Part shown: in pieces, positions 915 to 38,640 of the stretch
Numbering within the stretch: position 1 is the stretch's first letter
Layout: every line of letters begins with the position of its first letter
From: Spirochaetes bacterium GWB1_27_13
GTDB lineage: Bacteria > Spirochaetota > GWE2-31-10 > MWDO01
DNA: 56,627 nt
Direction: 5' to 3'
Assembly (NCBI GenBank): GCA_001829125.1
Contig: MIAN01000104.1
Span: 1-56,627, forward strand
Position numbers and translations under genes: made by a program
Notes under the pieces: model-generated
Database searches by the model: none
What the model was told of the DNA's origin: nothing
What the model saw: the letters and a program-made list of their open reading frames with translations, nothing else

Positions 915-925
915 AATTTAAAAAC

Positions 926-972
926 TGCCAAAAAATTTAGATTTAATCTAAAACTTTTTGGCATTTCTTTTT
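926..972 (+). terminator. Rho-independent terminator after argS
   Basis: Long imperfect hairpin TGCCAAAAAATTTAGATT / AATCTAAAACTTTTTGGCA followed by TTTCTTTTT. Confidence 0.7.
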
Positions 973-1355
973 ATAGTATATAAAATCAATTGTTTTTGTA
1001 GTAAATAAAATTTTAAAAATATTAATATTTTAAAAACTATAGATTTTTTTATTAAATTAAGAAAAAGACAATTAATTTTTTAAAAAATTCAATTTATTAT
1101 TGAAAAATAAAAAATATGTAATATTATTAAGATGTTAAATGTTTTTTTTATACAGTTTTTTTTAAAAAAATTTACATTTAAGATTATTTAAGAAGATAGT
1201 AATAATTATGAAACTAATAAATAAGTACTTTTTTAATACAAATTATTTATATTTTTTCCAACCACTTTCGACTACTCTAGAGAAATCAATCTCAAATTAT
1301 TTATGGTTATATTTTTTTCAATATAAAAAAAATTAATTTTTAGTGAGGAGAATTT

Positions 1356-23500: not shown

Positions 23501-23570
23501 TAATAAATTTATTAAATATTTTAATAAATTTACTATTTTTACTTGACAAAATTAGTAAATTTACTATAAT
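23501..23570 (+). promoter_or_regulatory. early promoter with three operator-like palindromes
   Basis: TTGACA (23543-23548), 16 nt, TATAAT (23565-23570). Operators TAATAAATTTATTA (23501), TAATAAATTTACTA (23522) and TAGTAAATTTACTA (23553), all with core TAAATTTA. Confidence 0.7.
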
Positions 23571-23723: not shown

Positions 23724-24071
23724 ATGTTTTTTAAAAACAAGGACAATGAAACAAAAAAAGATTTTTTCAATATCTTATTTAATCCTAAAAAAAATCATTC
23801 TCAACTGCAAGGCACAATGGCAATGAATGCCTCAAAAACTTTTGATATAGCAGAATTGATAGAGAAGTTTGAGAAAACTTGTTATGTAAAAGTGTTAGAT
23901 ATACACGGAATTAAAAACGAACAATCTTTTATATACAAGATTACAAACGAAAAAAAATATTCAGCATCAAAAGTTTTTATTTTTTTAAAAGACCAAAATT
24001 TAACATTAATAGATGACAGAATTTCTCACGCAGGAGGAGAATTTTGCGTATCATTCTTGATAAAAGAATAA
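23724..24071 (+). CDS. hypothetical early protein
   Basis: First ORF after the early promoter. ATG at 23724, inside the ORF-track ORF 23712-24071. Confidence 0.5.
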   Translation: MFFKNKDNETKKDFFNILFNPKKNHSQLQGTMAMNASKTFDIAELIEKFEKTCYVKVLDIHGIKNEQSFIYKITNEKKYSASKVFIFLKDQNLTLIDDRISHAGGEFCVSFLIKE

Positions 24072-24160: not shown

Positions 24161-24228
24161 TGTACTGCTCCTAAAAGTTTTTGAGAATAAAAATGCGATA
24201 AGACCCCCTTACTGCATTTTAAAAATAC

Positions 24229-24258
24229 GCAGGTTTGATAGCCCCCTATCAAACCTGC
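24229..24258 (-). terminator. 13-bp perfect hairpin with a U-tract on the minus strand
   Basis: GCAGGTTTGATAG-CCCC-CTATCAAACCTGC. On the minus strand it is followed by GTATTTTTAAAA. Confidence 0.5.
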
Positions 24259-24266
24259 AACTATAT

Positions 24267-24294: not shown

Positions 24295-24381
24295 TAAAAT
24301 TCTCGATAAACGAGATTTTTATATAAATTGAAAAAAAATAATGGTCATGTAACTTGAGACCATAGATTTGCTCCTTTAATG

Positions 24382-24429
24382 TGCTAATTGCCTGCGTTGC
24401 TTGCAATTAGCATTCTTTTTATGTTTTTT
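24382..24429 (+). terminator. Rho-independent terminator immediately upstream of the transposition genes
   Basis: TGCTAATTGC / GCAATTAGCA stem with an 11-nt loop, followed by TTCTTTTTATGTTTTTT. Confidence 0.7.
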
Positions 24430-24443
24430 GGAAGAGGAAAAAA

Positions 24444-24641
24444 ATGGAAGTATCTATCATAAAATCAGACGAAGATGCAGAAAAAAGTCTATTAGAAACA
24501 GAACAAAATGGATTAAAAAGACACAACATGAAAAATGTCTATTACTCATTTAGACAAAAAGGCTATACACCTTCATTCGCATTCGACCAAATGATAGAAT
24601 ATTTCGACTCAGAACGAGGGATTTATGGAAACGACAAGTAG
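24444..24641 (+). CDS. hypothetical small early protein
   Basis: 65 aa with a GAGGA RBS. Overlaps the transposase start by 17 nt. Confidence 0.5.
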   Translation: MEVSIIKSDEDAEKSLLETEQNGLKRHNMKNVYYSFRQKGYTPSFAFDQMIEYFDSERGIYGNDK

Positions 24642-26475
24642 TAGAATCGTTCTAACAAAAGATTTAGCCTCATCTTTAGGGATGACCCCAGAAGGCTTAA
24701 CAAAAAAAGCAAGACGCGAGGGTTGGAAATATTCTATACAGAACGGGATAGGTCGTGCTGGTAAAACAGTTTCTTACAAATTAGATGATTTGCCAGAAGA
24801 AATTCAAAAAAACTTTCTATTTGTTGAAAAACAAAGAGCCAAAGATATCAATCTTAACCAAATGCCTGAATGGCAAAGACGAAAAGTCATAGATAAAATG
24901 TATCTACTTGACTGCCTTGAAAAAGAGTTTGAAAAACTCGAGAATAGACGCCTTTCAAAAGAAAAAATAATGAAATTATTTATAGAGAGTTTCAAAAAAG
25001 GCAAAATATCAGAAGAAATTTTGTCAAGAAATGGAACATTTGCACTTAGAACGTTACAAGAGTGGCTAAGACAATACAAAGAATATAAAAAAACAAATGA
25101 TATAGATGTATTAGCACCGTCCTACGGTAAAAAAAAAGGAATAATCAAACTAACATCTAGCGACCAAGACTTTTTCATCAAAAACTATAATAATCCAAAC
25201 AGATTACCAATAACTACTGTGTGGACAGCATACAAAAACAAATGCGACCAAGAAAAACGAGAGCCAGTATGTTACAGCACAGCAACAAATTTTATAAGAA
25301 GAATACCTTACATTGCAAAAGTGTTGTATAGAGAAGGCGAAGAAACATTCAAAAAAGAATGCTTACCTCATATCCATAGACGAACGGATGACTTAGTTCG
25401 TAATGAATGGATAACATCTGATGGACACGACTTAAATTTATATGTGATTGACTCTAAAGGAAGAGAGTATAGACCAGTGATAGCTGTTTGGAAAGATATA
25501 GCATCAAGAATCATTCTTGGGTACAATTTTAACAAAACAGAAAACACCGAATTAATTATAGAAACTTTAGCAGATTCAATAAAAAACTATGGAAAACCTC
25601 AAAACATAAAGATTGACAACGGAAAAGCATACAAAAACAAACAAACTCACATAAATAACGAAAAAATTATAGGAACATATAAAATTTTTGGCATAGAAGC
25701 ACCAAGTTTTTCTATTCCATACAATCCTGAAGGAAAAGCAAATGTTGAGAGTTTTTGGAATGTAGTAGACAACTATTTTTCAAAAATTTTTCCAACATAT
25801 TGTGGAAAAAACAAAGATGAAAGACCAAAACATTTAAAAGAAACAATAGAAAAACTAAAAAAAGAAGGCAAAATGCCAACAATTCAAGACCTTTACATAG
25901 AATTTGAGAAATTTGTAAAGTGGTATAACGAAACGAGAGTACATTCTGCAATAGCAATGACACCAAAACAGAAATGGGACTCATATACAAACGAAATTGA
26001 AAAAATCAGTGAAGATAAACTTATTTTCGGGACGGTTCATAGAAGACACGCAACAGTTCAACGTGACGGAATTCTTTTTAACGGACATTGGTACAGAGAT
26101 GCTGAAGGCAAATTGACTAGAGAATATTTCAAAAAAACAAGAAGAAATGAAAAGAAAAAGAAAGTTGTTGTTGGTATCGATATGCATGATTTTTCAAAAC
26201 TATTCATATATACAGACGATGACAAAAACGAGTTAATTTGTGTTGCAGAAAAGAGAAATCTGTCATCTTGGAAGAAAACAAATGAAGCGAACAATCTAAA
26301 TGAACTCAAAGCAATCAAGAAAGAAATCAAAACACAAAAAGAAGCAATAAAAACTTTTGCAGGTTCAAAAGAAAACTTAAAAGATTTGAAAAATTTCTTA
26401 TACAACACAAAAGAAGACACAAACATTCAAAACAAGATAGAAAAAGAAGTTAAACTACCTAAAGGAGTCTTATAA
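24625..26475 (+). CDS. Mu-type DDE transposase (MuA-like)
   Basis: 616 aa. N-terminal HTH region (LASSLGMTPEGLTKKARREGWKY). rve-type core with candidate D (ITSDGHDL), D (IKIDNGKAY) and E (NPEGKANVESFW). Confidence 0.85.
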   Translation: METTSSRIVLTKDLASSLGMTPEGLTKKARREGWKYSIQNGIGRAGKTVSYKLDDLPEEIQKNFLFVEKQRAKDINLNQMPEWQRRKVIDKMYLLDCLEKEFEKLENRRLSKEKIMKLFIESFKKGKISEEILSRNGTFALRTLQEWLRQYKEYKKTNDIDVLAPSYGKKKGIIKLTSSDQDFFIKNYNNPNRLPITTVWTAYKNKCDQEKREPVCYSTATNFIRRIPYIAKVLYREGEETFKKECLPHIHRRTDDLVRNEWITSDGHDLNLYVIDSKGREYRPVIAVWKDIASRIILGYNFNKTENTELIIETLADSIKNYGKPQNIKIDNGKAYKNKQTHINNEKIIGTYKIFGIEAPSFSIPYNPEGKANVESFWNVVDNYFSKIFPTYCGKNKDERPKHLKETIEKLKKEGKMPTIQDLYIEFEKFVKWYNETRVHSAIAMTPKQKWDSYTNEIEKISEDKLIFGTVHRRHATVQRDGILFNGHWYRDAEGKLTREYFKKTRRNEKKKKVVVGIDMHDFSKLFIYTDDDKNELICVAEKRNLSSWKKTNEANNLNELKAIKKEIKTQKEAIKTFAGSKENLKDLKNFLYNTKEDTNIQNKIEKEVKLPKGVL

Positions 26476-26492
26476 AGCCTTGTGGGGGCTTT
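26474..26492 (+). other. small hairpin between the transposase and ATPase genes
   Basis: AAAGCC-loop-GGCTTT followed by an AT/T-rich run. Confidence 0.3.
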
Positions 26493-26516
26493 TAAATATA
26501 TTTTTTGGAGCAATTT

Positions 26517-27446
26517 ATGGCAGTAGAAGAAAAAAATCAAAAAGAATTAGAAAATTTAAGAAGAAGAGTAAAATTATACTTAACATCTAACAAAATGGCA
26601 CAAAATACTTTAGCAGAAAAGTTAGATATTAATAAAAGTGCATTATCAACTACTTTAAGTGGTTCTTATGCTGGAAAGATAGAAGATGTTATAAAAAAAA
26701 TAACAACATTTCTCGACAAAGAAGAACAAAAACTTACAAACAACATCAAAAAAATCGAGTACATTGATACTTCTATCAGTACAAAGATAGAAATCGCAAT
26801 AAGAGAAGCAGAGCAAGACGAAAAAATCGCTGTCATTTTAGGTCCTACTGGGATAGGTAAATCATTCTTTCTCAAACATTTTTGCAATGAAATTGATGCA
26901 TCTGTCATATACATAGAAGCGGATGAGACATACACAATTAAAAGTCTTTTAAATGAGATTAAAACAGTTTTAAAAATTGATGAGAAAATAAAAACAACAT
27001 CTGCATTGATGAAATCAATCACAGAAAAACTAAAAACAACAAAAAGAACAATCGTTATTGACGAAGCAGAAAGACTTTCTATTAAAATCTTATCTGTATT
27101 AAGAAAACTGCACGACAAGGCTGGTGTTGCAATTATTTTTTGTGGATTACCTGTACTTTTTACTGACATAATATCACAATATCAACAGACAGAGCCATTT
27201 CATTCAAGAATTTATAAAACTGACTTAGGCAAATTGACAAAAGAAGATACTACAATTTTCGTTAAAGAAGTTTTACCAAAAATTGAAAACGACCTCATTG
27301 ACTTTATACACCAAATTTCAAAACAAGTAACAGTCTACATTGTGAATATATTACTTCAAATCCAGAGAGAAATGAATAAAAGAGAGACTCAAACAGTTAC
27401 AAAAGAAATCATTATCAAAGCAACGGAAAACTTAGTTATCTTGTAA
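26517..27446 (+). CDS. MuB-like transposition ATPase (HTH + AAA+)
   Basis: GGAG RBS before the ATG at 26517. N-terminal XRE-like HTH, Walker A GPTGIGKS, Walker B IVIDEAE. Directly follows the transposase. Confidence 0.8.
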   Translation: MAVEEKNQKELENLRRRVKLYLTSNKMAQNTLAEKLDINKSALSTTLSGSYAGKIEDVIKKITTFLDKEEQKLTNNIKKIEYIDTSISTKIEIAIREAEQDEKIAVILGPTGIGKSFFLKHFCNEIDASVIYIEADETYTIKSLLNEIKTVLKIDEKIKTTSALMKSITEKLKTTKRTIVIDEAERLSIKILSVLRKLHDKAGVAIIFCGLPVLFTDIISQYQQTEPFHSRIYKTDLGKLTKEDTTIFVKEVLPKIENDLIDFIHQISKQVTVYIVNILLQIQREMNKRETQTVTKEIIIKATENLVIL

Positions 27447-27457
27447 AGAGGATGTTT

Positions 27458-27706
27458 ATGACAATTGAAATAATAACGACTAACGAAATAAAAATTAAAG
27501 AAATATTAGAAAAAGAAGGACTAACTGTTAATAATGTTCAAAAGAGTAAGGTTGGCACTGATATATACCATATAGCAATGCCAATCAAAACAGTAGAAAG
27601 AAAAGCAATAATTGCATTAACAAGAAACAATTTAATTATATACTATTTTTATGAGATACCACAATATGAAACTTCAATTTATGTCGTGAAAGGAGATGTT
27701 GCCTAA
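27458..27706 (+). CDS. hypothetical early protein
   Basis: GAGG RBS 6 nt before the second ATG of ORF 27452-27706. Confidence 0.45.
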   Translation: MTIEIITTNEIKIKEILEKEGLTVNNVQKSKVGTDIYHIAMPIKTVERKAIIALTRNNLIIYYFYEIPQYETSIYVVKGDVA

Positions 27707-27827
27707 TGTATAGATGTAGATGTATTATAGGACATTGGAAGAAAAAGACTATATTTGAACAAATTTTAACAGCATTTAAAAGCGGTTTAAACGCTTTAAT
27801 AACAATAAAAAAGAAATGGAGAAGAAT

Positions 27828-28109
27828 ATGGATCCTAATAGAACTAAAGAGGTTATACCTCAAGGAAATAAAGAAAAATATGCAGAGGACAAGACTGGAA
27901 CAAAAAAAAGAAAAAAAGTTATAAGGTCAACTGCAGTAGAATTTTTAAAATGGGTTTATGAGGAATACAAATTAACACCACAAGTAGAAGATGAAATGAA
28001 ACAAAAATTTATGGACGAAACTGGCAAAAACCTGCCAAGGGAATATAGTTATAGCTGTGATGGTATTTGTCTGGATGTACCAACAGGGAAGGAGGACGAA
28101 CGCAGATGA
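27828..28109 (+). CDS. hypothetical early protein
   Basis: GGAG RBS before the ATG at 27828. ATGA overlap with the next gene. Confidence 0.45.
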   Translation: MDPNRTKEVIPQGNKEKYAEDKTGTKKRKKVIRSTAVEFLKWVYEEYKLTPQVEDEMKQKFMDETGKNLPREYSYSCDGICLDVPTGKEDERR

Positions 28110-28735
28110 CTGATAACAAAAAAAGAGAACTGTATAAAGACTATTTAATCAATAGAAATGGTGAAGTTATATTAAAACAATACATAAGCGAGAGAGATTG
28201 GGAAAAAAATATTGTTTTAAATGAAATATTCATAGAAGTAGATAAAATTGCAAAATATCTGAAAGACGCAAAAAGAGCAATAACAGATATGATTCTTGAT
28301 TATATGAATAAAGTTGGTTCAGATATAGATAAAAAATATACAAAAGAAGAGATAACAAACATCACAATAACAAGTTATGACTCAAACAGGCAGGTAGAAG
28401 TAACAACAGCATCTCTAAAAAGATTAAACGAAAAAATAAAAAACGCGGAAGTCCTTTTCAAAAAATGTATTGTTAAATGGGAAGAAAACAATGAAATCAA
28501 TGAAAAAGCAAAAACGATGATAAACTCTTTTTTTGGTCAAAGAATGACTGTCACAAAAGCATTATCTATCTGCCAACTAAAGTTTGTTGACGACGAATGG
28601 GCTGATGCTGTTGCCATATTAAAAGATGCTATTGATACAATAAATAGTAAAATGTACTATGTTTTTAAAGAAAGAAATAAAGTTGACAACAAATTTAGAG
28701 CAATAAACTTAAATTTCACTTCAATTGAAGTATAG
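28106..28735 (+). CDS. DUF3164-like Mu-family early protein
   Basis: GGAAGGAGGA RBS before the ATG at 28106. The C-terminal pattern ...DDEWADAVAILKDAIDTINSKMYYVFKERN...FRAINLNF matches my recollection of the DUF3164 family found in Mu-like early regions. Confidence 0.5.
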   Translation: MTDNKKRELYKDYLINRNGEVILKQYISERDWEKNIVLNEIFIEVDKIAKYLKDAKRAITDMILDYMNKVGSDIDKKYTKEEITNITITSYDSNRQVEVTTASLKRLNEKIKNAEVLFKKCIVKWEENNEINEKAKTMINSFFGQRMTVTKALSICQLKFVDDEWADAVAILKDAIDTINSKMYYVFKERNKVDNKFRAINLNFTSIEV

Positions 28736-28762
28736 AAATTTAAGACAATGGAGGGTAACTAT

Positions 28763-29131
28763 ATGAAAAAAGAAACAGAACAAGTATTTGATTGGGAAAT
28801 TGCAAAAATAACTGGAGAAGTTGACAAAAGAAACTATTATGATTGTGATATTAAAGAAATTGAAGATGCAACTATTAGTTCAACTGGATTTATGAACTCG
28901 AAATTTTTGGGAAACATTAAACATACAAACTTCAAAAATACACCAATAATTGATTGTGACTTATCAATTACAGAATTTATTGAAAACCATTTTGAAAATG
29001 TGACAATAACCAATTGTAATACAACTGGAACTAAATTTATAAAATGTACTGGCACTATCTTGTTTGCTGATTGTACAGAAATACCATTAGACCAAGAGAC
29101 TGATGACTTTTTAGTGTTAGAATCAGAATAA
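28763..29131 (+). CDS. pentapeptide-repeat (beta-helix) protein with an acidic tail
   Basis: GGAGGG RBS. Hydrophobic residue every 5th position over at least 6 consecutive repeats (F,I,L,F,F,I) with small residues at i-2. Ends ...DQETDDFLVLESE. Confidence 0.55.
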   Translation: MKKETEQVFDWEIAKITGEVDKRNYYDCDIKEIEDATISSTGFMNSKFLGNIKHTNFKNTPIIDCDLSITEFIENHFENVTITNCNTTGTKFIKCTGTILFADCTEIPLDQETDDFLVLESE

Positions 29132-29203
29132 ATACGAAACACCGCTTTTATCAAAAAAGCGAGTGTCTTGCAGGTTGGTAACTGCAACTGATGAGTTAGC
29201 CAA
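29131..29203 (+). ncRNA. type II hammerhead self-cleaving ribozyme, copy A
   Basis: C-GAAA 29135-29138. 11-bp stem III (one bulged A) closing with A:U. GUC with C17 at 29167. Stem I UUGCAG/CUGCAA with loop GUUGGUAA. CUGAUGA 29188-29194. The 3' GCCAA is complementary to the loop UUGGU. Confidence 0.8.
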
Positions 29204-29222
29204 AAATAAAAAGGGGGGAAAA

Positions 29223-29765
29223 ATGGGATACATTCCAGACTGTGAATTCAAACGATGTAAAAGAATTGATTTTCTCATCGAAAAGATAAAGTTCTATATT
29301 CAAACGATGAGATATTATCGTGAAAAAGCGAAAAATTTAGAAAAATATGTAAAAACGAATGGAAAAGACTTGCAATCCGAAAAGATTGACGAAAGTAAAG
29401 CGAAAACAATTGAAGCAATGAGACAAGAAATTATTGTTTTAGATTATGTATTAGAAATTTTAATGGCTTCGCGAGAAGGACTCAAAGATTTAGTTTTAGA
29501 TGTAACAGAAAAAGATGTGGCATTAAGATTAATAAAAAGCGAAGGAGTTGAAAAAATATTAAAATCAGCGATATGTTCTTTGAAGCAAGGCATTGAAAAA
29601 ATTTGTGAAAAAATTCAATACTATAATAAAGAAGAAAAGAACGTTATTACTGACATTGAAATATTTTTAAATGATTTAACAAACAATATTTACAAAGATG
29701 TCCTTTCAAAGATAAAATACAATTTATTGTCAACAGAAAAAGAGACAACAATATATTTATTGTGA
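29223..29765 (+). CDS. hypothetical coiled-coil early protein, flanked by the two hammerheads
   Basis: GGGGGG RBS before the ATG at 29223. The ORF-track start at 29163 lies inside the ribozyme. Confidence 0.55.
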   Translation: MGYIPDCEFKRCKRIDFLIEKIKFYIQTMRYYREKAKNLEKYVKTNGKDLQSEKIDESKAKTIEAMRQEIIVLDYVLEILMASREGLKDLVLDVTEKDVALRLIKSEGVEKILKSAICSLKQGIEKICEKIQYYNKEEKNVITDIEIFLNDLTNNIYKDVLSKIKYNLLSTEKETTIYLL

Positions 29766-29783
29766 TGTTTTAATTCTCAGTAA

Positions 29784-29856
29784 ATAACGAAACACCGCTT
29801 TTCTAAAAAAAGTGGTGTCTTGCAGGTTGGTAACTGCAACTGATGAAGTTAGCCAA
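29784..29856 (+). ncRNA. type II hammerhead self-cleaving ribozyme, copy B
   Basis: C-GAAA 29788-29791. 11-bp stem III with one G:U. GUC with C17 at 29819. Same stem I as copy A. CUGAUGA 29840-29846. Stem II GUUA:UAAC. 3' GCCAA pseudoknot partner. Confidence 0.8.
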
Positions 29857-29869
29857 AAGGAGAAAAACA

Positions 29870-30251
29870 ATGCTATTAGTGAAAACTAAGTTAAAATCAA
29901 GTAAAATAGACGGTATAGGACTATTTGCCAATGAATTTATAAAAAAAGGCACAATAATTTGGAAATATCACCCATTATTTGAAAAAATAATCACAACAGA
30001 AGAGATTGAAGCATTAGAAAAAACTCCAAAAAAAAACAATACTTCATTATGCTTACAAATCAGAAGAAAACAAATACATTTTGTGTTGTGACGATGCAAG
30101 ATTTATGAATCATTTAGATAATCCAAACGTCGACGAAATAATAGAAAACTACGAAGTTTATAATATTGCCAATAGAGATATAGAAATTGGAGAAGAAATA
30201 ACCTGCAATTACAAAACTTTTGACTTAGATTTTAATAAGAAAATATTGTAG
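29870..30251 (+). pseudogene. SET-domain protein gene split by a frameshift in an A9 tract
   Basis: AAGGAG RBS. The N-terminal half carries IDGIGLFANEFIKKG. The downstream frame carries DDARFMNHLDNPN and IEIGEEITCNY. The frames join if the A9 run (30028-30036) is read as A8, giving about 126 aa. Confidence 0.7.
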
Positions 30252-30278
30252 TGTACTTTTTTTATCAAAGGAATAATT

Positions 30279-30926
30279 ATGACACAAATAGAAAAAATAA
30301 AAAAAGAATGTCTTTTAATAATTGGAGAAGAACATGCTGTTTTCTTCTGCTTGATAGATTTCTTTTTAGACAAACTTCTAATGAATCATGACGAAGACTT
30401 TCTTATTGCCGAAATAAAAAAGAATAATTGCAAAAACTTTTGCGATATTAAAAAAGTACTTGAAAGAATTTGTTTTTTAGACAAAAAAAAAGACAATTCG
30501 TCACTTTTAGATGAAAATATAAACGTAGATGAAGTTTTTAAAAAAATTAACGAAATAGAATTTGATAGTTCTAAAAATGAGCAATTAAAAAAAAGTGATG
30601 ATAGTTGTCATATCACAGAAGAAAAACAAAACGACAATATTGAGACCAAGTGGAAAGAAATTTATAAATCAATTGGACTCAAAGGAAACTTCTCTCCGTT
30701 AAGTGCAGAGCCAACACCAGAATTAATTAACAAAATAAGTTTAAACAAAGACAAAATAAAAACTTCTTTTGATCTTTTAATATTATCTTTAGGTGGAGAA
30801 ATCAAAGAAAAAAAAACAGAACAACCAACACATGTATATATACCAAAATTTAACAAGGAAAAAAAAGAAATAAAACAGAAAGTAGATGAAAATATTTTCT
30901 ATGCGAAAACGAGTTTATTTGAGTGA
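30279..30926 (+). CDS. hypothetical early protein
   Basis: 215-aa ORF with an AAAGGA RBS. No motif recognised. Confidence 0.5.
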   Translation: MTQIEKIKKECLLIIGEEHAVFFCLIDFFLDKLLMNHDEDFLIAEIKKNNCKNFCDIKKVLERICFLDKKKDNSSLLDENINVDEVFKKINEIEFDSSKNEQLKKSDDSCHITEEKQNDNIETKWKEIYKSIGLKGNFSPLSAEPTPELINKISLNKDKIKTSFDLLILSLGGEIKEKKTEQPTHVYIPKFNKEKKEIKQKVDENIFYAKTSLFE

Positions 30927-30937
30927 GGATAAAAAAA

Positions 30938-31219
30938 ATGAATAAAAAGGAAAAAATATCTAAAAGCGTACAAAAATTAAGAAACGAGATAAAATTAGCA
31001 GAAGCAAGGGCTATTGCCAAACAAAGAAGAACGAATTTAAATAAAGTTTTAGAAAAAGATAAATTTGAAACACATGGCGACATTTATGATTTTTTTATGG
31101 GCTTGACTTCAAAACAAAAACAACATTTAGCATTTTGCTATTTATACAGCGAAGCAAATTTTGGTTCACCAAAAGAACTTTACGAAAGATTTAAAGACAA
31201 TAAAAAGGTAAAAAAATGA
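30938..31219 (+). CDS. hypothetical basic early protein
   Basis: GAGG RBS before the ATG at 30938. ATGA overlap with the methyltransferase gene. Confidence 0.45.
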   Translation: MNKKEKISKSVQKLRNEIKLAEARAIAKQRRTNLNKVLEKDKFETHGDIYDFFMGLTSKQKQHLAFCYLYSEANFGSPKELYERFKDNKKVKK

Positions 31220-32043
31220 GCGATGAAAGATACTTATTTGAAAGAGAATATGAACTTATTCCTTTTCAAGAAGAAGATTTAGGATTAAAAAAGAAAAAAG
31301 GTGTTCTCTCGATGGGAAAAAATAATTATTACGAAAAACCTAAAGAGACAACAATTTCCACACCGCTTGGTATCAGTAAATATATTTTTGATACAATTCA
31401 TAACTATTTTAGATTTTCTAACAATCTAAAGTATGTACTTGATGTTGGTTGTGGACGAGGAAATTTGACATATTTTTTTAATAAAAATGCAAACTATTTT
31501 TGTATTGGGATTGATAAAACTAAAATTTTTTTGGAAGACAATGCCAATGTATCTATCAAACAAGAAATAGATTTTTTGACAACAACAACAAAAAATGAAA
31601 GTATAGATATAATACTATGCAATCCACCTTGGAACAACCCAAAAAATTTAGAAAACAATAAAAACTTACCAGAAAACATAGAATTATCAGAAGAAACAAT
31701 GAATAAATATAGTAAAAAATTTGAAATGTATAACTCTACTCTCTATCCATACATATTCTTGAGACATATCTTTGAAATTTACGGATATAGACGACCTGTT
31801 GTATTATTAAGCCCGTTTGGGTTTCTGTATAATAACGATGTCAATTCACATCGTTATGAATGGATTAGAGATAATGGAGCAAAAATTACAAACATCACTA
31901 TTTTACCAAAAAATATTTTTAAACAAGTTAAATACCCTGCACAAATTCTATTTTTTAATATTTTTGGTCTCGAACCTGTTACTTTTTTAGAAGAAAAATA
32001 TATTAATCCAACACTTTTTGACTTGGAGGGATTCAATGCTTGA
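31216..32043 (+). CDS. N6-adenine DNA methyltransferase (orphan)
   Basis: SAM motif VLDVGCGRGNL followed by the catalytic NPPW (CNPPWNNP). No restriction gene nearby. Confidence 0.75.
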   Translation: MSDERYLFEREYELIPFQEEDLGLKKKKGVLSMGKNNYYEKPKETTISTPLGISKYIFDTIHNYFRFSNNLKYVLDVGCGRGNLTYFFNKNANYFCIGIDKTKIFLEDNANVSIKQEIDFLTTTTKNESIDIILCNPPWNNPKNLENNKNLPENIELSEETMNKYSKKFEMYNSTLYPYIFLRHIFEIYGYRRPVVLLSPFGFLYNNDVNSHRYEWIRDNGAKITNITILPKNIFKQVKYPAQILFFNIFGLEPVTFLEEKYINPTLFDLEGFNA

Positions 32044-32239
32044 GAAGATCATCATTGTATATATTACAGGTGCGTTAGTTTCATTTGTTTATTTTGCTAC
32101 AATGGAAAAGAGCATATTAAATGAAGAATATACAAATGAACACGATGGAATAGAAGCTTTTCTATATATAATTTGTAGCGTGTTCTGGTTTGTTTTTTGG
32201 GTTTACGGAATTATGAATTTATTCAAAAAATATAAATAA
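32036..32239 (+). CDS. small membrane protein
   Basis: GGAGGG RBS before the ATG at 32036. Two hydrophobic helices. Confidence 0.45.
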   Translation: MLEKIIIVYITGALVSFVYFATMEKSILNEEYTNEHDGIEAFLYIICSVFWFVFWVYGIMNLFKKYK

Positions 32240-32240
32240 G

Positions 32241-32262
32241 TTTTTGATTGAGATGCAATAAA
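32241..32262. repeat. left arm of a 22-bp perfect inverted repeat
   Basis: TTTTTGATTGAGATGCAATAAA. Its exact reverse complement lies at 32532-32553. Confidence 0.9.
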
Positions 32263-32280
32263 AAGAATGGAGAAAAAAAA

Positions 32281-32520
32281 ATGTGGAATAAGATACCTCT
32301 AATAGGTTGGCTATTAGATTTCATTTTTAAAGTATCATTAGCAGTTCCTTTTTGGTTCTGCTGGAAAGTTTGTAGATTAGGACAAAAGTTTTTTGGATTT
32401 CTCCCAACGCAATATCAAAATATTGGTTTTTGGGAGACTGTTGGATTATTTATAATAACAGGAATAATTTTTAGCTTCGTTAAAATTATGCAAGTTAGTA
32501 ACACAACAAACATAAAATAA
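32281..32520 (+). CDS. small membrane protein enclosed by the inverted repeat
   Basis: GGAG RBS before the ATG at 32281. MWNKIPLIGWLLDFIFKVSLAVPFWFCWKV... has 2 TM helices. Confidence 0.5.
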   Translation: MWNKIPLIGWLLDFIFKVSLAVPFWFCWKVCRLGQKFFGFLPTQYQNIGFWETVGLFIITGIIFSFVKIMQVSNTTNIK

Positions 32521-32531
32521 GAAATAATAAA

Positions 32532-32553
32532 TTTATTGCATCTCAATCAAAAA
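32532..32553. repeat. right arm of the 22-bp perfect inverted repeat
   Basis: TTTATTGCATCTCAATCAAAAA. Confidence 0.9.
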
Positions 32554-32573
32554 TTTAAGAAAAGAGGCGTACT

Positions 32574-32786
32574 ATGACTCAAAGACAATATGAAAATTGG
32601 TGGTTAAACAAAAAATGCCATGTTGTTGGTTCAACAGAGAAAAAATACAAAAAAGTAATAAAAATAGAAGTTATTAAAAATAAAAATCACAATTTTGTCG
32701 TACTACACTATGAAGACAAAACTACTGAGCACGTTGGGAATGAAAATAGACTCCCCACTAAGTGGGAAGTAGAAGTACAAAAATAA
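32574..32786 (+). CDS. hypothetical early protein
   Basis: 70 aa with an AGAGG RBS. Confidence 0.45.
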   Translation: MTQRQYENWWLNKKCHVVGSTEKKYKKVIKIEVIKNKNHNFVVLHYEDKTTEHVGNENRLPTKWEVEVQK

Positions 32787-32806
32787 ACGTTGTTGATAAA
32801 TAATTT

Positions 32807-33139
32807 ATGATAAATAAAAAACAAATTGCATATATACATATATTAAAAAACAATCTCGCGATTTCAGAGAAAAAATACAGAGAAATTCTGCAATTTTTTC
32901 TTGTCAACACATCAAAAGACTTACCAGAAGAACAATATACTTTTTTTATTTCAAAAATGAAAGAACTTTCTGCTACAACAAAACAACTCAACACAATTCA
33001 CTTTTTAGCAAAAAACATTGTAACAAATCTTAAATCTTATTGCGAACACATCACACAAAGAAAAATACTAAATCTAAGTTTTTTACGAAAGGAGGAAGCA
33101 AGCCTCATCATTACTTCACTACAAAAATATAAAAAATAA
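32807..33139 (+). CDS. GemA/Mu gp16-like protein (DUF1018-like)
   Basis: N-terminal pattern KQIAYIHILKNNLAISEKKYREIL...TSKDLPEEQY matches the remembered gp16/GemA family pattern. Confidence 0.55.
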   Translation: MINKKQIAYIHILKNNLAISEKKYREILQFFLVNTSKDLPEEQYTFFISKMKELSATTKQLNTIHFLAKNIVTNLKSYCEHITQRKILNLSFLRKEEASLIITSLQKYKK

Positions 33140-33147
33140 AAACACTT

Positions 33148-33165
33148 TTTCGCATATTTTGACAC
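33148..33165 (+). promoter_or_regulatory. 18-nt motif TTTCGCATATTTTGACAC, copy 1 (candidate activator-dependent promoter element)
   Basis: An identical 18-mer recurs at 39831-39848. Both copies lie in gaps that start late operons. Confidence 0.35.
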
Positions 33166-33198
33166 TTTTTTTCTCATTGAGAATGGTAGTATTTGCGT

Positions 33199-33396
33199 AT
33201 GAAAAAAACAAATATTTTAAAATTTTTAACAAACGAAGAAAAAGACATTTTGAGAGAACTTTTTCTTCGCAAAAGAATATACATTCCAGAAGACACATGC
33301 AAAGCATTTGAAAAATATCAAATTACAAAAAAAGACGCTAAGGTTTTTTTGCAGGAGTTAGAAAGTGAATCGAAGTCAAAGAGTCAAAATAAGTGA
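33199..33396 (+). CDS. hypothetical small protein
   Basis: ATG at 33199, inside ORF 33193-33396. Confidence 0.4.
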   Translation: MKKTNILKFLTNEEKDILRELFLRKRIYIPEDTCKAFEKYQITKKDAKVFLQELESESKSKSQNK

Positions 33397-33607
33397 CATC
33401 GCACCTTATTTATCAAAAAAATCATTATTTCTAATTCTTTTTTATTGTGCAGGGACATCAATATATGTCCCTGCACAATCCAAAAAGGAACGAAACGAAA
33501 GAATATTGAACGAGTATCGAGAAAACACATCTTTGACAATCGGAAAAATATCTGATAAATATAATTTATCAAAATCACAGATATATAGAATAATAAATGG
33601 AAAATAA
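33365..33607 (+). CDS. Mor/C-family transcriptional activator
   Basis: AGTSIYVP...RNERILNEY...LTIGKISDKYNLSKSQIYRIING matches the Mor/C pattern (GG..YIP, then a C-terminal HTH). Confidence 0.75.
   Translation: MNRSQRVKISDIAPYLSKKSLFLILFYCAGTSIYVPAQSKKERNERILNEYRENTSLTIGKISDKYNLSKSQIYRIINGK
33444..33479. repeat. perfect palindrome with 15-bp arms inside the Mor-like gene
   Basis: ATTGTGCAGGGACAT-CAATAT-ATGTCCCTGCACAAT. Confidence 0.9.
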
Positions 33608-34064
33608 CAAATTTGACTTATATTACAATGAAAGCAGAGAACTCTATGTTGTACATGGCAAAACACTGAGAGAAATATCAAAAATTTTCAATGTGAGCGA
33701 AAGAACTTTGTCTTCGTGGAAAAACAATGAGAAAAACTATGATATTGCTACTTGGGAAGAACAAAGAAAAAAGTTTTTAATTAGTAAAAATGGGTCAATT
33801 GATGTAGTCAAAAACTCAATATCTGCATTTCTTGAAAATTTAGTGATAGACCCCTTGGCAATAGATAAAGAGACTTATAACAAAATAAATTTATTGACAA
33901 AATTATTAGACAAATTTGAAAAAAGAGAAGATATTTTTGCTAGTACTATTTCAGTGATGGAATACTTTACGCGATTCATAAAAGAAAAATATCCAGATGA
34001 AGCAGAAACATATTTACCTGTTGTAAGAGAGTTTTTTGGTTGGATGGAACAATGGCGAAAGTAA
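33597..34064 (+). CDS. terminase small subunit (DUF1804-like)
   Basis: N-terminal HTH GKTLREISKIFNVSERTLSSWKNNEKNYDIATWEEQRKK. Immediately upstream of the large terminase. Confidence 0.6.
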   Translation: MENNKFDLYYNESRELYVVHGKTLREISKIFNVSERTLSSWKNNEKNYDIATWEEQRKKFLISKNGSIDVVKNSISAFLENLVIDPLAIDKETYNKINLLTKLLDKFEKREDIFASTISVMEYFTRFIKEKYPDEAETYLPVVREFFGWMEQWRK

Positions 34065-35581
34065 CAAAAAATCAATACAAAAAGACAACAGAAACAATAT
34101 TAGAAAAACTTCTAAATGAAGTTTCTTGCTTTCCTAAAGACCAAAATCAAAAAGAACGAAAAGAAAAATCGAAAAAAGACCTTTTTGAATTTATAAAAAA
34201 CTATTTGCCTCACTATGCAGAGCAAGGAACGCCAGACTTTCATAGAGAAATCAATCAAATATATGAGAATATGGCGACATTAACAGCTGCTGCAATTGCA
34301 GCTCCTAGAGGATTTGCTAAGTCAACTATATTTTTTGCAAAAATACTACAATCCATTTGTTTTAAATTAGAAGACTTCGTTGTCTACGTCTCTGCAACAA
34401 GAGAATTAGCACAAGATTTTACTGAGTTTTTAAAACTTGAACTAGAACACAATGAACGAATTAAAGAAGATTTTGGAAATCTACTAACTCACTCTGGCAA
34501 AAAAAACGACTTCGTTGCAAACAATGTAAGAGTTGTTGCAAGAGCGAAGAGGCAGATGGTTCGAGGTTTCAAATACAAAAATCACAGACCCTCATTAATT
34601 GTAGTAGATGATATTGAAAAAGACGAAGAAGCACAATCTCCAAAACTTGTATTGAAATATTTAAAAATTATAACTGAAGGGGTTTTTCCATCTCTAAATC
34701 CAATTAACGGGAAATTAATAATAATTGGAACAATTATTAAAAAGCGTTCTGTTCTTGGTATAATAATTAACTCTGATGAAGAAATATTTGCAAGTTGGAC
34801 AAAAAGAAAATATCAAGCATTAAATATAGATGACAATGGCAATCAGTATTCTTTGTGGGAAGCAAGATTTCCAGTTAAAACTTTACTAAAAATCAAAGCA
34901 ACTATTGGAACTGCTGCATTTGAAAAAGAATATCAAAACAACCCAAAAGACGAAGATGACGAATCTGTATTTCATGAGAGTTGGATACAATACTATGAAA
35001 ATGTAGACTTAAAAAAACTTGTAAGAGTGATGTTTATTGATCCTTCAGCGAAAGAAAAAACATCTGCAAGAAATAGAAAACCAGACTACAAAGCAATCAT
35101 CGTTCTTGGACTTGATAGAAAAGAAATGAAATACTATGTACTATATGCTTGGATACAAAGAACTTCTATAATCAATATGATTGCTGCTATTTTTAGACTT
35201 TTCCTACAATTTAGATGTAGCATCGTTGGTGTAGAAAGCAATGGCTTTCAATCTTTATTAGAACCGTTAATAAGGGCAGAAGAAAAACAAAAAAAAATAA
35301 ATCTTCCTCTAAAATTGCAAGAAAATTATAAAAACAAAGAAATAAGAATAAAGTCACTTGCACCAACGTTTGAAAGATTATTAGTCTTTTTTAAAAAATA
35401 TCCAGACGATGACACAAAACTATTAATAAATCAATTTATTTATTACCCCGGGATAGAAGATGACGGACCTGATGCATTTAAAGCTGCAAAAGAGATAATT
35501 GATAAATTAACAATAAAAAATTCTTTTTTAGGAATAAACACAAAACAAATACCTTCGAGTGAAGATTGGAAAAATTTATGA
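34040..35581 (+). CDS. terminase large subunit
   Basis: 513 aa. ATPase motifs AAPRGFAKST and LIVVDDIEKDEE. C-terminal nuclease-type region (FIDPS...). Confidence 0.85.
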   Translation: MDGTMAKVTKNQYKKTTETILEKLLNEVSCFPKDQNQKERKEKSKKDLFEFIKNYLPHYAEQGTPDFHREINQIYENMATLTAAAIAAPRGFAKSTIFFAKILQSICFKLEDFVVYVSATRELAQDFTEFLKLELEHNERIKEDFGNLLTHSGKKNDFVANNVRVVARAKRQMVRGFKYKNHRPSLIVVDDIEKDEEAQSPKLVLKYLKIITEGVFPSLNPINGKLIIIGTIIKKRSVLGIIINSDEEIFASWTKRKYQALNIDDNGNQYSLWEARFPVKTLLKIKATIGTAAFEKEYQNNPKDEDDESVFHESWIQYYENVDLKKLVRVMFIDPSAKEKTSARNRKPDYKAIIVLGLDRKEMKYYVLYAWIQRTSIINMIAAIFRLFLQFRCSIVGVESNGFQSLLEPLIRAEEKQKKINLPLKLQENYKNKEIRIKSLAPTFERLLVFFKKYPDDDTKLLINQFIYYPGIEDDGPDAFKAAKEIIDKLTIKNSFLGINTKQIPSSEDWKNL

Positions 35582-38500: not shown

Positions 38501-38640
38501 CATTTGAAGAGTTGAAAAAGAATATAACAGAGACTAAAGAAAATATAGTCAAAATGTCCCCTGAGAATGGTTTTTTGGGGAATGTCGGTGAGGATTTGGA
38601 TTTTTGGATGAAAAACAAAAATCTTGTTAAAAAAGAGTAA
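35578..38640 (+). CDS. portal protein (Mu gp29-like) fused to a GNAT acetyltransferase-like segment and a MuF/SPP1 gp7 head-morphogenesis domain
   Basis: One uninterrupted frame. ATGA overlap with the terminase stop. GNAT-like VAVRPQNRKEGIATNLV...ENFESKTFFKKLGF. MuF signature LDNQTRPEHAALNGF...FWKDWYPPNGYRCRCYV. Confidence 0.75.
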   Translation: MSTNKTSFKSLYNNQTAFNVYNTLYELSNPDQILREKGESITLYEKLSYDSHVESCQESRHVGLLSNEFDFFLQDGADAQEKKALDFIKDLFTNKINTEDLISNIQDTIYWGYGVTENLKVRDGLNIIYDKIEYLPHEWFGFNEDRELVFFSKTNATEGEIVDRANTTIIQYRPSYKNPYGRGKYSRIFFPVMIKKAMVKYGASYAENLGRVFLYLVTQVAENQEKKYELTKMLQEIIRSGAGVLETGDKLEHLNIDKAGSGNFFLDWVNWGNQEVSKCVLLQTLSTEQGAVGSQALGNVHYQVRAEAIEADKKYTKRFISQYIKQIVDLNYPNIKIYPELRYFEEEDLNVQRVDRDEKLTKQGLVFKKEYYEENYNLNPNHFDLGNDNNIEENPEENPTPKEKFKFQEVSEDIEKVIKIINSLSVQEKEFLGSRDFYNQADFRIFEKEKGFCEARLIGDKVYIQVAVRPQNRKEGIATNLVSEMIDKIKVNCPSAERIIATIDDENFESKTFFKKLGFGLGYSSQAQNKFWLDLKKKSPAEKLISLLFSEENINLFYQEDNQIEKFIEKTENNFSNYFKQFLNDVSKAIKDSKDYDEAKEKISKCVGKNKDVKKIAYAFLTADIIGRGYARLQRDEDVILFAETSNVSDIENIIFDYTDVNFLKMKVAMTKKEFDVLENKYKKYAFTIKGYEEKSQIESIQNMLIECKEKGLGFKEFQKSCQEKELKVNSLVYWQNIKSAQAAGRYNQMMQDVDIAPYWQYSAILDNQTRPEHAALNGFIRRYDDTFWKDWYPPNGYRCRCYVRSLSASYVRKKLGLSPEEIDKRNGMPEKGELLSLIEKGQEDRRKTFETSKNNIVSLENEKTQQLLRSTEKIDNIINLCDKKEDLTIEERNSISNILRTINNKIDDIVADKIDIKKTKSFYTQLRKKSLNEEQKNELKYIVKNVEKEIRMYDIQDIVDKIEQNKSRIKFFNSFEELKKNITETKENIVKMSPENGFLGNVGEDLDFWMKNKNLVKKE
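36880..37200 (+). other. GNAT-like acetyltransferase segment within the portal-MuF polyprotein
   Basis: Motif-A-like RPQNRKEGIATNLVSEMI and the downstream N..S..FFKKLGF. Confidence 0.5.

Follow-up and report, generated by a model that had tools for sequence, protein, structure and literature searches.

Type II hammerhead ribozymes flanking single prophage genes were reported in 2011 (Perreault et al., PMC3088659). Clustered prophage hammerheads were described from C. scindens, A. caulinodans and the ardA locus of A. tumefaciens, and cleavage of tandem prophage hammerheads was observed in E. coli as well as in vitro (PMC3088659). Active ribozymes of this kind commonly have a stem II of two base pairs, and a pseudoknot has been described for the subfamily in which loop I pairs over at least 4 bp with the nucleotides directly following stem II on its 3' side (PMC3088659). 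Three type II hammerheads located near phage-like genes of D. vulgaris cleave in vivo (PMC8782182). PMC10085705, in its summary of Roth 2014 and Weinberg 2015, states that bacterial hammerhead and twister ribozymes are associated with genes of Mu-like phages more strongly than with any other genes. The natural CChMVd (+) hammerhead tolerates one additional A between A9 and G10.1 (De la Pena and Flores 2001, as related in PMC3705267), and in the one case studied this extra A10 lowered the rate, according to the same account.

Sequence and fold of the two copies

The window, that is the whole stretch of 56,627 nt which was analysed, was found to contain an element of about 80 nt in two + strand copies, A and B, forming a direct repeat. 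The copies lie 653 nt apart, both on the coding strand, and their global identity is 0.91 over the 80-nt units. The repeat search of the window recovered them as two matched segments, 29153-29194 / 29805-29846 (42 nt, 90%) and 29134-29159 / 29787-29812 (26 nt, 92%). The coordinates of the copies, of their structural parts and of the surrounding genes are summarized in Table 1.

Table 1. Hammerhead copies, their parts and the neighbouring features in the window
Feature	Position	Strand	Evidence
Hammerhead copy A, type II	29127..29206	+	sequence reading, RF02276 29.4 bits, R1 61.2 bits, descriptor scan
Hammerhead copy B, type II	29780..29859	+	sequence reading, RF02276 34.0 bits, R1 60.3 bits, descriptor scan
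C-GAAA, 5 nt	29135-29139 (A); 29788-29792 (B)	+	sequence reading
G12-A14	29136-29138 (A); 29789-29791 (B)	+	sequence reading
Stem III, 11 bp	29139-29166 (A); 29792-29818 (B)	+	
Pair A15.1:U16.1	29139:29166 (A); 29792:29818 (B)	+	sequence reading
C17, predicted cleavage after it	29167 (A); 29819 (B)	+	
Stem I hairpin, 6 bp	29168-29187 (A); 29820-29839 (B)	+	
Stem I strands and loop, A	29168-29173 / 29182-29187, loop 29174-29181	+	
Stem I strands and loop, B	29820-29825 / 29834-29839, loop 29826-29833	+	
CUGAUGA	29188-29194 (A); 29840-29846 (B)	+	sequence reading
Stem II, A	5' strand ending A29134-C29135; 3' strand G29195-U29196	+	
Stem II, B	5' strand UAAC 29785-29788; 3' strand GUU(A) 29848-29851	+	
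Pseudoknot, A, 5 bp	tail GCCAA 29199-29203; loop I UUGGU 29175-29179	+	
Pseudoknot, B, 5 bp	tail GCCAA 29852-29856; loop I UUGGU 29827-29831	+	
Intergenic gaps	29132-29222 (A); 29766-29869 (B)		
Candidate early promoter TTGACA-16-TATAAT, 12/12	23543..23570	+	consensus scan only
Upstream early genes including small ORFs	24625..28735	+	Pfam, PHROGs
MuA-type transposase	24625-26475	+	Pfam, PHROGs
MuB-type ATPase	26505-27446	+	Pfam, PHROGs
DUF3164	28067-28735	+	Pfam, PHROGs
Upstream gene, weakly pentapeptide-repeat-like	28748..29131	+	Pentapeptide_4 25.8 bits, under cut-off
Bracketed ORFan, 180 aa, predicted all-helical	29223..29765	+	ORF list
Downstream SET-domain gene	29870..30251	+	frame-corrected 127-aa product, SET 60 bits, model 1-105/105

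On reading of the sequence the catalytic core is complete in both copies, comprising CUGAUGA, GAAA, the A15.1:U16.1 pair and a GUC before the predicted cleavage site, so that C3 U4 G5 A6 N7 G8 A9, G12 A13 A14 and H17 are all present. The parts follow one another as stem II strand, GAAA, stem III hairpin, H17, stem I hairpin, CUGANGA and stem II strand; this is the type II permutation, in which stems I and III are capped and stem II is open. Stem III opens with the A15.1:U16.1 pair and carries a bulged A29162 in copy A, and at one position the G:C pair of copy A is replaced by G:U in copy B. The stem I hairpin is UUGCAG-GUUGGUAA-CUGCAA. The minimum free energy fold of copy B gave stems III and I as proposed. 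The differences between the copies fall in loops or in a bulge, or else preserve pairing; within the pairs there is a single one-sided change (G:C to G:U) and no double compensatory change. The G:U pairs in stem III of copy B and in the pseudoknot are possible only in RNA of the + strand, which is the coding strand.

Stem II is marginal. In copy A it pairs over 2 bp and then meets a U:U mismatch, and in copy B it needs one extra A (A29847) beside the core, between A9 and G10.1. The pairs adjoining the core are canonical in both copies (1.1-2.1 U:A, 10.1-11.1 G:C and 15.1-16.1 A:U), which is the acceptance rule of Perreault 2011 (PMC3088659); for the 10.1-11.1 pair of copy B this requires A29847 to be taken as an insertion, as aligned by both covariance models. 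The 3' tail of each copy is complementary to its own loop I over 5 bp.

An earlier note on this DNA had described a direct repeat of about 78 nt and about 90% identity, and the present figures bear it out. Its list of invariant hammerhead elements in type II order was recovered in full, as were the pairing-preserving differences with the bulged A in copy A, the short stem II that is weaker in A and has an extra A in B, and the pseudoknot of GCCAA with UUGGU. For the C-GAAA the motif stands and the ranges were corrected, as the five nucleotides extend to 29139 and 29792 and not to 29138 and 29791.

Model scores, relatives and covariation

The default Rfam scan of the window at gathering score was empty, because both copies score under the curated gathering cut-off of the Rfam model Hammerhead_II (RF02276), which is 37 bits and is an operational criterion of the database, not a property of the RNA. 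The matches of RF02276 to A and B appear only with permissive filters or with a subfamily model. Both copies then aligned over the whole model (1-66/66), including its conserved UGG loop and AGCCAAA tail, with E-values of 9.6e-4 in 901 nt for A and 6.7e-6 in 101 nt for B. The permissive RF02276 scan of the whole window recovered copy A alone, copy B being dropped by the filters, and such a scan with Rfam revealed no other ribozyme family and no RAGATH family in the window. A covariance model, R1, was trained on 14 metagenomic and viral relatives with the window copies left out. It scored both copies above 60 bits, compared to 10.6 bits for the next-best match in the window; its E-values are rough. 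Judged by the default scan, the refuting condition of the earlier note, the lack of a significant covariance-model match, would be triggered; the permissive RF02276 search and R1 both matched the copies.

The pattern CTGATGA-N(0-8)-GCCAA occurs 2 times in the window against 0.04 expected, and the type II descriptor, set to the stem strength seen in the copies, found these two sites only, against 0.016 expected per randomised window. A chance origin of the two elements is excluded. A third descriptor match at 48611-48675, which lies inside an ORF and has CUGAAGA as its core and 3 bp in stem III, was unseen by R1 and was rejected; the loose descriptor expects 0.63 matches per window. Matches of the type I descriptor at 37226-37315, within the portal gene, were equally weak and were also set aside.

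Covariation was analysed over 16 distinct sequences. Canonical pairs filled 90% of the pair cells compared to 30-41% with slid partners, a percentage which is inflated because the relatives were retrieved by a window-derived pattern and rows were kept when the stems form. Changes on both sides were found at 6/6 pairs of stem I, 5/7 of stem III and 2/3 of stem II, amounting to 13/21 pairs overall. The pseudoknot covaries where the search pattern imposed no constraint, as seen in UGGGCU:AGCCCA, UGGCCU:AGGCCA, UGGCC:GGCCA and UUGGCA:UGCCAA, and this further supports the earlier reading of the tail. The closest relative, L011, showed a double change from G:C to A:U in stem I, and its stem III is unrelated in sequence yet fully paired. 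Two other contigs with the ORFan (L009, L010) carry ribozyme copies identical to those of the window and therefore add no variation. The pattern matches L003-L007, L012/L023, L015/L020/L022 and L032, whose stems fail to form, were treated as chance and excluded. No GenBank phage was matched by 27000-32000 in blastn, protein searches with the ORFan and DUF3164 in a word-indexed database returned self-matches only, and the protein-anchored search of IMG/VR gave one marginal partial match (L008) and nothing further.

Twenty relatives exceeded the RF02276 gathering score, at 37.4-63 bits, and are GC-richer, whereas the AU-rich L011, L024 and L014 fail it. The cut-off thus misses AU-rich members from genomes of low G+C, the window copies among them, which share architecture and covariation with those that pass.

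The ribozyme of L011/L031, an independent Mu-like phage with MuA 41% and DUF3164 30% identical, is likewise found between DUF3164 and GemA, in the corresponding slot, and that of L001 lies next to a GemA gene. This conservation bears on the reading of A and B as decayed or very slow hammerhead relics, in which the fold is kept and a useful cleavage rate is lost, leaving neutral duplicates or hairpins that act as RNA stabilisers or as elements of protein or ribosome access. The RF02276 scores under threshold would fit such a loss, and so would the 2-bp stem II with its U:U mismatch in A and the extra A beside the core in B; the extra A10 moderately lowered the CChMVd rate in the account of PMC3705267, and Perreault 2011 allows non-functional members among clustered hammerheads (PMC3088659). 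However, the invariant core is intact in both copies despite 9% divergence elsewhere, their differences are confined to loops, the bulge or pairing-neutral positions, both partners of the pseudoknot are intact, and both slot and ribozyme are shared with a phage whose proteins are no more than 30-41% identical. Stem II variants of two and even one base pair are moreover active (PMC3088659). Relics are on this evidence improbable.

Many relatives carry 2-4 co-oriented copies in an array, in most cases separated by 300-800 nt; such spacing by a single gene is typical of the subfamily, and all the arrays are co-oriented with the genes. The mean identity of copies is 0.71 within a locus and 0.62 between loci, and the 91% of the window pair is the highest of any intra-locus pair; A and B would have arisen through local duplication. 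Duplication or recombination of cassettes would also make copies within a locus more alike, and exactly one gene, the ORFan, lies between the two copies in a hypervariable region, so the repeat could be imagined to act as DNA, either as a recombination or insertion site for accessory cassettes or as the operator of a phage regulator, with the hammerhead look being secondary. Against this, the relatives conserve pairing over sequence, including G:U pairs specific to + strand RNA, every array is co-oriented with its genes, the positions that never vary coincide with the catalytic core, and a covarying pseudoknot is needless for a DNA site. A role as DNA could only be added to the ribozyme and not replace it, and as the sole explanation it is highly improbable.

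By motif, covariation, slot and co-orientation, the two elements are confirmed at the sequence level as a real type II hammerhead pair. Their place would be in an AU-rich branch of the known subfamily associated with prophages, where the pseudoknot of loop I and 3' tail holds the active fold. It is very likely that A and B are functional self-cleaving ribozymes of this branch, locally duplicated and carried on a Mu-like early transcript.

The early region and the predicted cleavage products

Each copy occupies an intergenic gap, and together they flank the ORFan. No match to this ORFan was found in Pfam, PHROGs or PADLOC, and its AlphaFold2 model has a pLDDT of 40. C11.1 of copy A is reached 4 nt downstream of the stop codon (29129-29131) of the upstream gene. 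The frame of the downstream SET gene is broken at an A10 run (30024-30033), with 29870-30091 in one frame and 30081-30251 in the +1 frame; the truncated ORF alone gave a SET score of 23.8 bits. The neighbourhood is Mu-like, with a DDE_2 / Mu-transpos_C transposase, a MuB-like ATPase, DUF3164, a GemA-like protein, DUF1804, Portal_Mu and Phage_Mu_F, and the ribozymes are placed between the DUF3164 and GemA homologues. On the accessory genes PADLOC found a methyltransferase only, and no rRNA or tRNA was found in the window. The placement of the copies in short gaps before gene starts, in the early region of a Mu-like phage and around one gene, agrees with what the earlier note had stated; the phage context was confirmed by Pfam and PHROGs, and the SET-domain neighbour by its frame-corrected product.

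Stem III of copy A is a strong hairpin directly after a stop codon, and a terminator-like site was flagged at 29162-29142, though on the minus strand. Both could be read in favour of hairpins that are intrinsic terminators or attenuators between early genes, the core motifs being coincidental. On the + strand, however, no U-run follows either hairpin and no terminator-like site was found over 24316-35000; the full descriptor is expected by chance at 0.016 per window, and both RF02276 and R1 match the copies. The chance that the hairpins are terminators is close to negligible.

For the hammerheads, the ribozymes would be carried on a long early + strand transcript running through the transposase, the MuB-type ATPase and DUF3164 and then the accessory genes, and the candidate promoter of Table 1 could drive such a transcript with both copies on it. 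Each copy would fold co-transcriptionally and then cleave after C17 (29167|29168 and 29819|29820) by internal transesterification. The upstream RNA piece would have the stem III hairpin and a 2',3'-cyclic phosphate at its 3' end, and the mRNA of the upstream gene (28748-29131) would reach as far as stem III of copy A. The middle piece would be a monocistronic RNA of about 650 nt (29168-29819) for the ORFan, and the downstream piece would carry a 5'-OH, open with the stem I hairpin and start 50 nt ahead of the SET-domain gene. The leaders left by cleavage would be 55 nt for the ORFan and 50 nt for the SET gene, the lengths given previously. Stability and translation of the accessory genes may in this way be uncoupled from those of the essential transposition genes. 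These steps, namely cleavage, a single transcript and the fate of the mRNA pieces, are what we infer from the motif and its setting.

A wider suggestion is that hammerhead-bounded genes are a unit of accessory-gene turnover in Mu-like phages, in which the 91% identical copies mark a recently acquired 'ribozyme + gene' cassette. Recombination between ribozyme copies in the hypervariable segment between DUF3164 and GemA could then bring in, remove or reorder such cassettes. This is unlikely; if true, the ribozyme would be both an RNA insulator for a new gene and a portable patch of homology. More speculative still, the excised 29168-29819 RNA, with its 5'-OH and 2',3'-cyclic phosphate, might be circularised by an RtcB-type ligase.

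Comparison with described hammerheads

The analysis adds two non-coding features to the prophage which ORF-based annotation and the default Rfam scan both leave blank. The locus is a further case, in a Mu-like early region, of a known and functionally unexplained pattern in which ribozymes insulate accessory genes. The slot after DUF3164, common to two phages at 30-41% protein identity, offers a clean comparative pair for studying the purpose of cleavage. No current view is changed by the finding, and the novelty implied in the earlier note was not upheld, as prophage hammerheads flanking single genes were known in 2011 (PMC3088659) and the Mu-like association is stated in PMC10085705.

Compared to RF02276 and the ribozymes of PMC3088659, the window copies have an identical core, the same permutation, a stem II of 2-4 bp, the pseudoknot of UGG loop I with the AGCC(A) tail, and GUC. 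They differ from RF02276 in being AU-rich, in a stem III that is long, rich in A/U and closed by a 5-nt loop, in a stem I hairpin of 20 nt where the Rfam consensus has 22 nt, in the extra A after A9 of copy B and in the U:U at the third stem II position of copy A. Their score of 29-34 bits, under 37, is due to this AU-richness, the stem lengths, the extra A and the mismatch; relatives of the same architecture exceed the Rfam cut-off. The extra A of copy B is at the same position as in CChMVd (+), whereas the viroid ribozyme is of type III with loop-loop contacts and the window copies are pseudoknot-type ribozymes of type II.

Like the prophage clusters of PMC3088659 and the D. vulgaris pair about 300 nt apart (PMC8782182), the window copies are co-oriented and occupy the intergenic gaps before and after a single small accessory gene, and the relatives are arranged alike. 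For the published clusters, examples of which cleave in vitro and in vivo, the proposed role is the cutting of long phage transcripts to gene-length mRNAs (PMC3088659, PMC8782182). The window differs from them in that its bracketed gene is an ORFan, with a SET-domain gene coming next, and that its host is an uncultured bacterium of very low G+C represented by metagenomes only. Compared to the Mu-like association as stated in PMC10085705, the neighbourhood is the same, with no difference in kind. The pair is of a known kind, its arrangement in such phages having been described since 2011, and the finding is correct but ordinary.

Sequence, fold and model scores of the two elements

The sequence of 28900-30100 was read and an element of about 80 nt was found twice in direct orientation on the + strand (copies A and B, see table). 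The repeat search returned the pair as two half-families of 42 nt at 90% and 26 nt at 92% identity with a spacing of 652-653 nt, and the global identity of the 80-nt units was 0.91. The hammerhead parts listed in the earlier note lay where it had placed them, except that C-GAAA covers five bases (29135-29139 and 29788-29792). The copies differ in the stem III loop, in one stem pair which is G:C in copy A and G:U in copy B, in a bulged A29162 restricted to copy A and in one additional A on each stem II strand of copy B. The stem II is short in both and is the weak point of the fold; copy A forms two pairs (C:G, A:U) before a U:U mismatch, and copy B forms 3-4 bp only if A29847 is taken as an insertion between A9 and G10.1. 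The predicted pseudoknot is possible in both copies, with loop I UUGGU pairing with the tail GCCAA through 5 bp, one of them U:G.

The pattern CTGATGA-N(0-8)-GCCAA was found 2 times in the window against 0.04 expected. With stems required to be as strong as those observed, the type II descriptor (GAAA, an A:U-closed hairpin, H, a second hairpin and CUGANGA) matched only copies A and B on both strands, with 0.016 expected per randomised window. A third descriptor match at 48611-48675 is weak, falls within an ORF and is in line with what the loose descriptor gives by chance (0.63). The CTGATGA heptamer occurs 6 times on the + strand of the window; a third one near the elements (29100-29106, 29 nt upstream of copy A, within the pentapeptide-like ORF) is without hammerhead stems and is probably a chance occurrence.

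The default Rfam scan of the whole window at gathering scores gave no match. Using permissive filters, the covariance-model check proposed in the earlier note aligned RF02276 (Hammerhead_II) over the whole model (1-66/66) with both copies, matching the conserved UGG of loop I and the AGCCaAA 3' tail, at scores below the curated cut-off of 37 bits. The permissive scan revealed no other ribozyme family in the window.

Coordinates and scores of the features in the window and in related loci (L handles, pattern-matching loci of public metagenome and viral collections)
Feature	Position	Strand	Remarks
HTH repressor-like gene	left end of prophage	-	
Perfect consensus promoter (12/12 sigma-70)	23543-23570	+	
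Perfect 12/12 sigma-70 promoter	24294-24267	-	
Terminator-like hairpin	24028-24049	+	
Terminator-like hairpin	24228-24259	-	
Terminator-like hairpin	24301-24315	both	
MuA-type transposase	24625-26475	+	
MuB-type ATPase	26505-27446	+	
DUF3164	28067-28735	+	
Copy A	29127-29206	+	intergenic gap, stop of ORF 28748-29131 to ATG 29223; sequence, ORF list
Copy A, RF02276 match	29132-29205	+	29.4 bits; E 9.6e-4 (901-nt search), 0.06 (whole window); permissive filters
ORFan (180 aa)	29223-29765	+	
Copy B	29780-29859	+	intergenic gap, stop of ORF 29223-29765 to ATG 29870; sequence, ORF list
Copy B, RF02276 match	29785-29858	+	34.0 bits; E 6.7e-6 (101-nt search); permissive filters
SET-domain gene	29870-30251	+	
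L011	6161-6241		AU-rich, below RF02276 gathering score, as copies A and B
L024	433-506		AU-rich, below RF02276 gathering score
L014	265-387, 665-737, 1030-1099		AU-rich, below RF02276 gathering score
L029, four copies	742-2368	-	pseudoknot UUGGCA:UGCCAA
L016, four copies	407-1952	+	core CUGACGA at 1869
L019, four copies	160-1770	+	pseudoknot UGGCC:GGCCA; core CUGAAGA at 1129, apparent U4-to-C (CCGACGA) at 160
L026			pseudoknots UGGGCU:AGCCCA and UGGCCU:AGGCCA
L028			pseudoknot GUGGU:GCCAC

Relatives and covariation

Since protein-anchored searches found no related phages, relatives were collected by a pattern scan of public collections in which the core, stem I hairpin length and tail were fixed and all the stems were free. 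In about two thirds of the 31 loci, the unconstrained positions pair into a stem I of 5-7 bp and a stem III of 5-13 bp; for six contiguous pairs closed inwards from the ends of a random 20-mer, the probability is ~0.003. The rest seem to match by chance. Many matches have the exact architecture of the window, that is a 6-bp stem I, the 8-nt loop NUUGGYAA and a stem II of 2-3 bp with AGCCAA immediately after it. The loop of the window, GUUGGUAA, recurs in the relative L011 (identical in L018 and L031), where stem I is UUACAG/CUGUAA against UUGCAG/CUGCAA in the window, a compensatory G:C to A:U change, and stem III is unrelated in sequence, yet fully paired. Among 16 distinct sequences, 90% of pair cells were canonical against 30-41% with the 3' partners slid by 1-3 columns, the 90% being inflated because rows were chosen for forming stems; the number of pair types per position is not inflated, and both sides changed in 6/6 pairs of stem I, 5/7 of stem III and 2/3 of stem II. 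A purely DNA-level role for the repeat is contradicted by this covariation, which preserves RNA pairing, strand-specific G:U pairs included.

The covariance model R1 was built from 14 non-window sequences only and run on the window with filters off. Copies A and B scored 61.2 and 60.3 bits with it, against 10.6 bits for the next best on either strand, so the window holds exactly two copies; the score is in part built in, the training sequences having been collected with a pattern drawn from the window core and tail, which left out the sequence of loop I and all stem pairing. The pattern placed no constraint on the further copies that R1 located in the retrieved loci, and in these the pseudoknot covaries (L026, L019, L029 and L028), in accordance with the tertiary contact predicted earlier.

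The RF02276 cut-off was exceeded by 20 relatives found with R1 (37.4-63 bits), while the AU-rich relatives L011, L024 and L014 fall under it as the window copies do. The window copies are therefore low-scoring AU-rich members of one continuous family and not a different thing. This family is that of the known type II hammerheads of the pseudoknot type. In low-G+C genomes, type II hammerheads seem to be under-called at the curated cut-off, the 20 GC-richer relatives of the same architecture passing it; that it misses the AU-rich branch is a modest added value of the analysis.

Prophage setting and the conserved slot

At its left end the window has ~22 kb with cellular genes (arginyl-tRNA synthetase, RuvB, penicillin-binding protein, M16 peptidase, histidine kinase) at 22-31% G+C. 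From ~22.9 kb on the window is occupied by a prophage whose MuA-type transposase, MuB-type ATPase, DUF3164, GemA-like, DUF1804 and Mu portal / F genes bear out the Mu-like setting. The DUF3164 gene is followed by a weakly pentapeptide-like gene, copy A, the ORFan, copy B, the SET-domain gene, two unknown genes, N6-adenine methyltransferase, GemA-like, DUF1804, large terminase and Mu portal / Mu F protein, all these features being on the + strand and only the repressor-like gene on the minus. No + strand terminator-like site was called in 24316-35000, which together with the shared strand fits one long early transcript, as judged from sequence. Reading the hairpins of the elements as terminators fails, as no U-tract follows them on the + strand.

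At the left end of the prophage the two perfect promoters are convergent across ~0.7 kb with terminator-like hairpins between them, and this region may be the lysogeny / early-operon switch. A single 1024-aa ORF at 35566-38640 combines Mu portal (residues 46-382), GNAT acetyltransferase (~447-524) and Mu F head-morphogenesis (704-808) domains; portal and F are normally encoded separately, and an acetyltransferase inside such an ORF is uncommon.

The overlapping, identical loci L011 and L031 together represent one independent Mu-like phage with the order MuA, MuB, DUF3164, hammerhead, two small genes, GemA-like, DUF1804 and TerL, sharing 41% (MuA), 35% (MuB), 30% (DUF3164) and 49% (TerL) protein identity with the window. 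In both phages the ribozyme stands at the start of the variable DUF3164-GemA segment, which is ~0.55 kb with one ribozyme in L011/L031 against ~4 kb with two in the window; the IMG/VR contig L001 carries a clear GemA gene with two copies immediately upstream. This slot, kept between phages at 30-41% protein identity, is a further added value. Decayed, non-cleaving relics of hammerheads are unlikely, as core and pseudoknot are intact in both copies and the slot is kept across distant phages.

With R1, arrays of 2-4 copies in one orientation were found in L029, L026, L016, L028, L019, L014, L034, L030 and L001, spaced by 293-802 nt, which is one small gene per interval; the three four-copy arrays, on short metagenome contigs, each fit within 1.5-1.7 kb, with core variants in two of them. 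Mean identity was 0.71 for copies within a locus against 0.62 between loci, the window pair being highest at 0.91, which points to local duplication or gene conversion; as a third added value, the resemblance of copies within a locus is a hint that 'ribozyme + gene' units have been duplicated.

The ribozyme-bearing segment 28748-32043 is an accessory island absent from L011/L031, holding the pentapeptide-repeat-like gene, the ORFan, a SET-domain methyltransferase, two unknowns and an N6-adenine DNA methyltransferase (PADLOC mad2 / MTase_II-like). In A. tumefaciens, a published hammerhead array flanks ardA, an anti-restriction gene, and by this parallel an anti-defence theme is at most conceivable. 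The SET-domain gene is split over two frames at an A10 run (30024-30033). The annotated 73-aa ORF covers only the N-terminal third of the domain (23.8 bits), while continuation in the +1 frame beyond the run yields a 127-aa product covering the whole Pfam SET model at 60 bits. The same 73-aa call is present in the independent metagenome assemblies L009 and L010, and possible explanations of the break are pseudogene formation, a homopolymer error, and transcriptional slippage or programmed frameshifting.

Proposed processing and known hammerheads

The interpretation as two type II hammerheads was supported by motif, fold, covariation and R1 scores, along with strand, position and conservation; cleavage and its RNA products are what we infer for the locus. 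The early transcript would be cut at 29167|29168 and 29819|29820, 3' of C17, through 2'-OH attack as in established hammerhead chemistry, so that the upstream fragment ends in a 2',3'-cyclic phosphate and the downstream one starts with a 5'-OH. The stem III hairpin would then end the upstream RNA. The ORFan would be released on an RNA of ~650 nt with the stem I hairpin at its 5' end and the copy B stem III hairpin at its 3' end, and the SET-gene RNA would start 50 nt ahead of the start codon, carrying a 5'-OH and a hairpin. According to the published array hypothesis, such ends would be expected to alter decay and translation of accessory genes independently of the transposition genes.

Perreault et al. 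2011 (PMC3088659) described the first natural type II hammerheads, with the loop I / 3'-tail pseudoknot tested by mutation and frequent proximity to prophage genes; the pseudoknot of the window is the same one. The extra A between A9 and G10.1 is common to copy B and the CChMVd (+) hammerhead, where it occurs naturally at exactly that position with only moderate rate loss (PMC3705267). The short stem II has precedents too, two-base-pair forms being frequent and active (PMC3088659). It was also proposed that the ribozymes cut long phage transcripts into mRNAs of gene length, and three arrays cleaved in vitro and one in E. coli (PMC3088659). In D. vulgaris, cyPhyRNA-seq revealed in vivo cleavage of three type II hammerheads adjoining phage-like genes, two of them ~300 nt apart (PMC8782182). 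In view of these reports of prophage type II hammerheads, arrays and cleavage, the window pair is a textbook case of the described arrangement, a known genomic arrangement in a known kind of phage.
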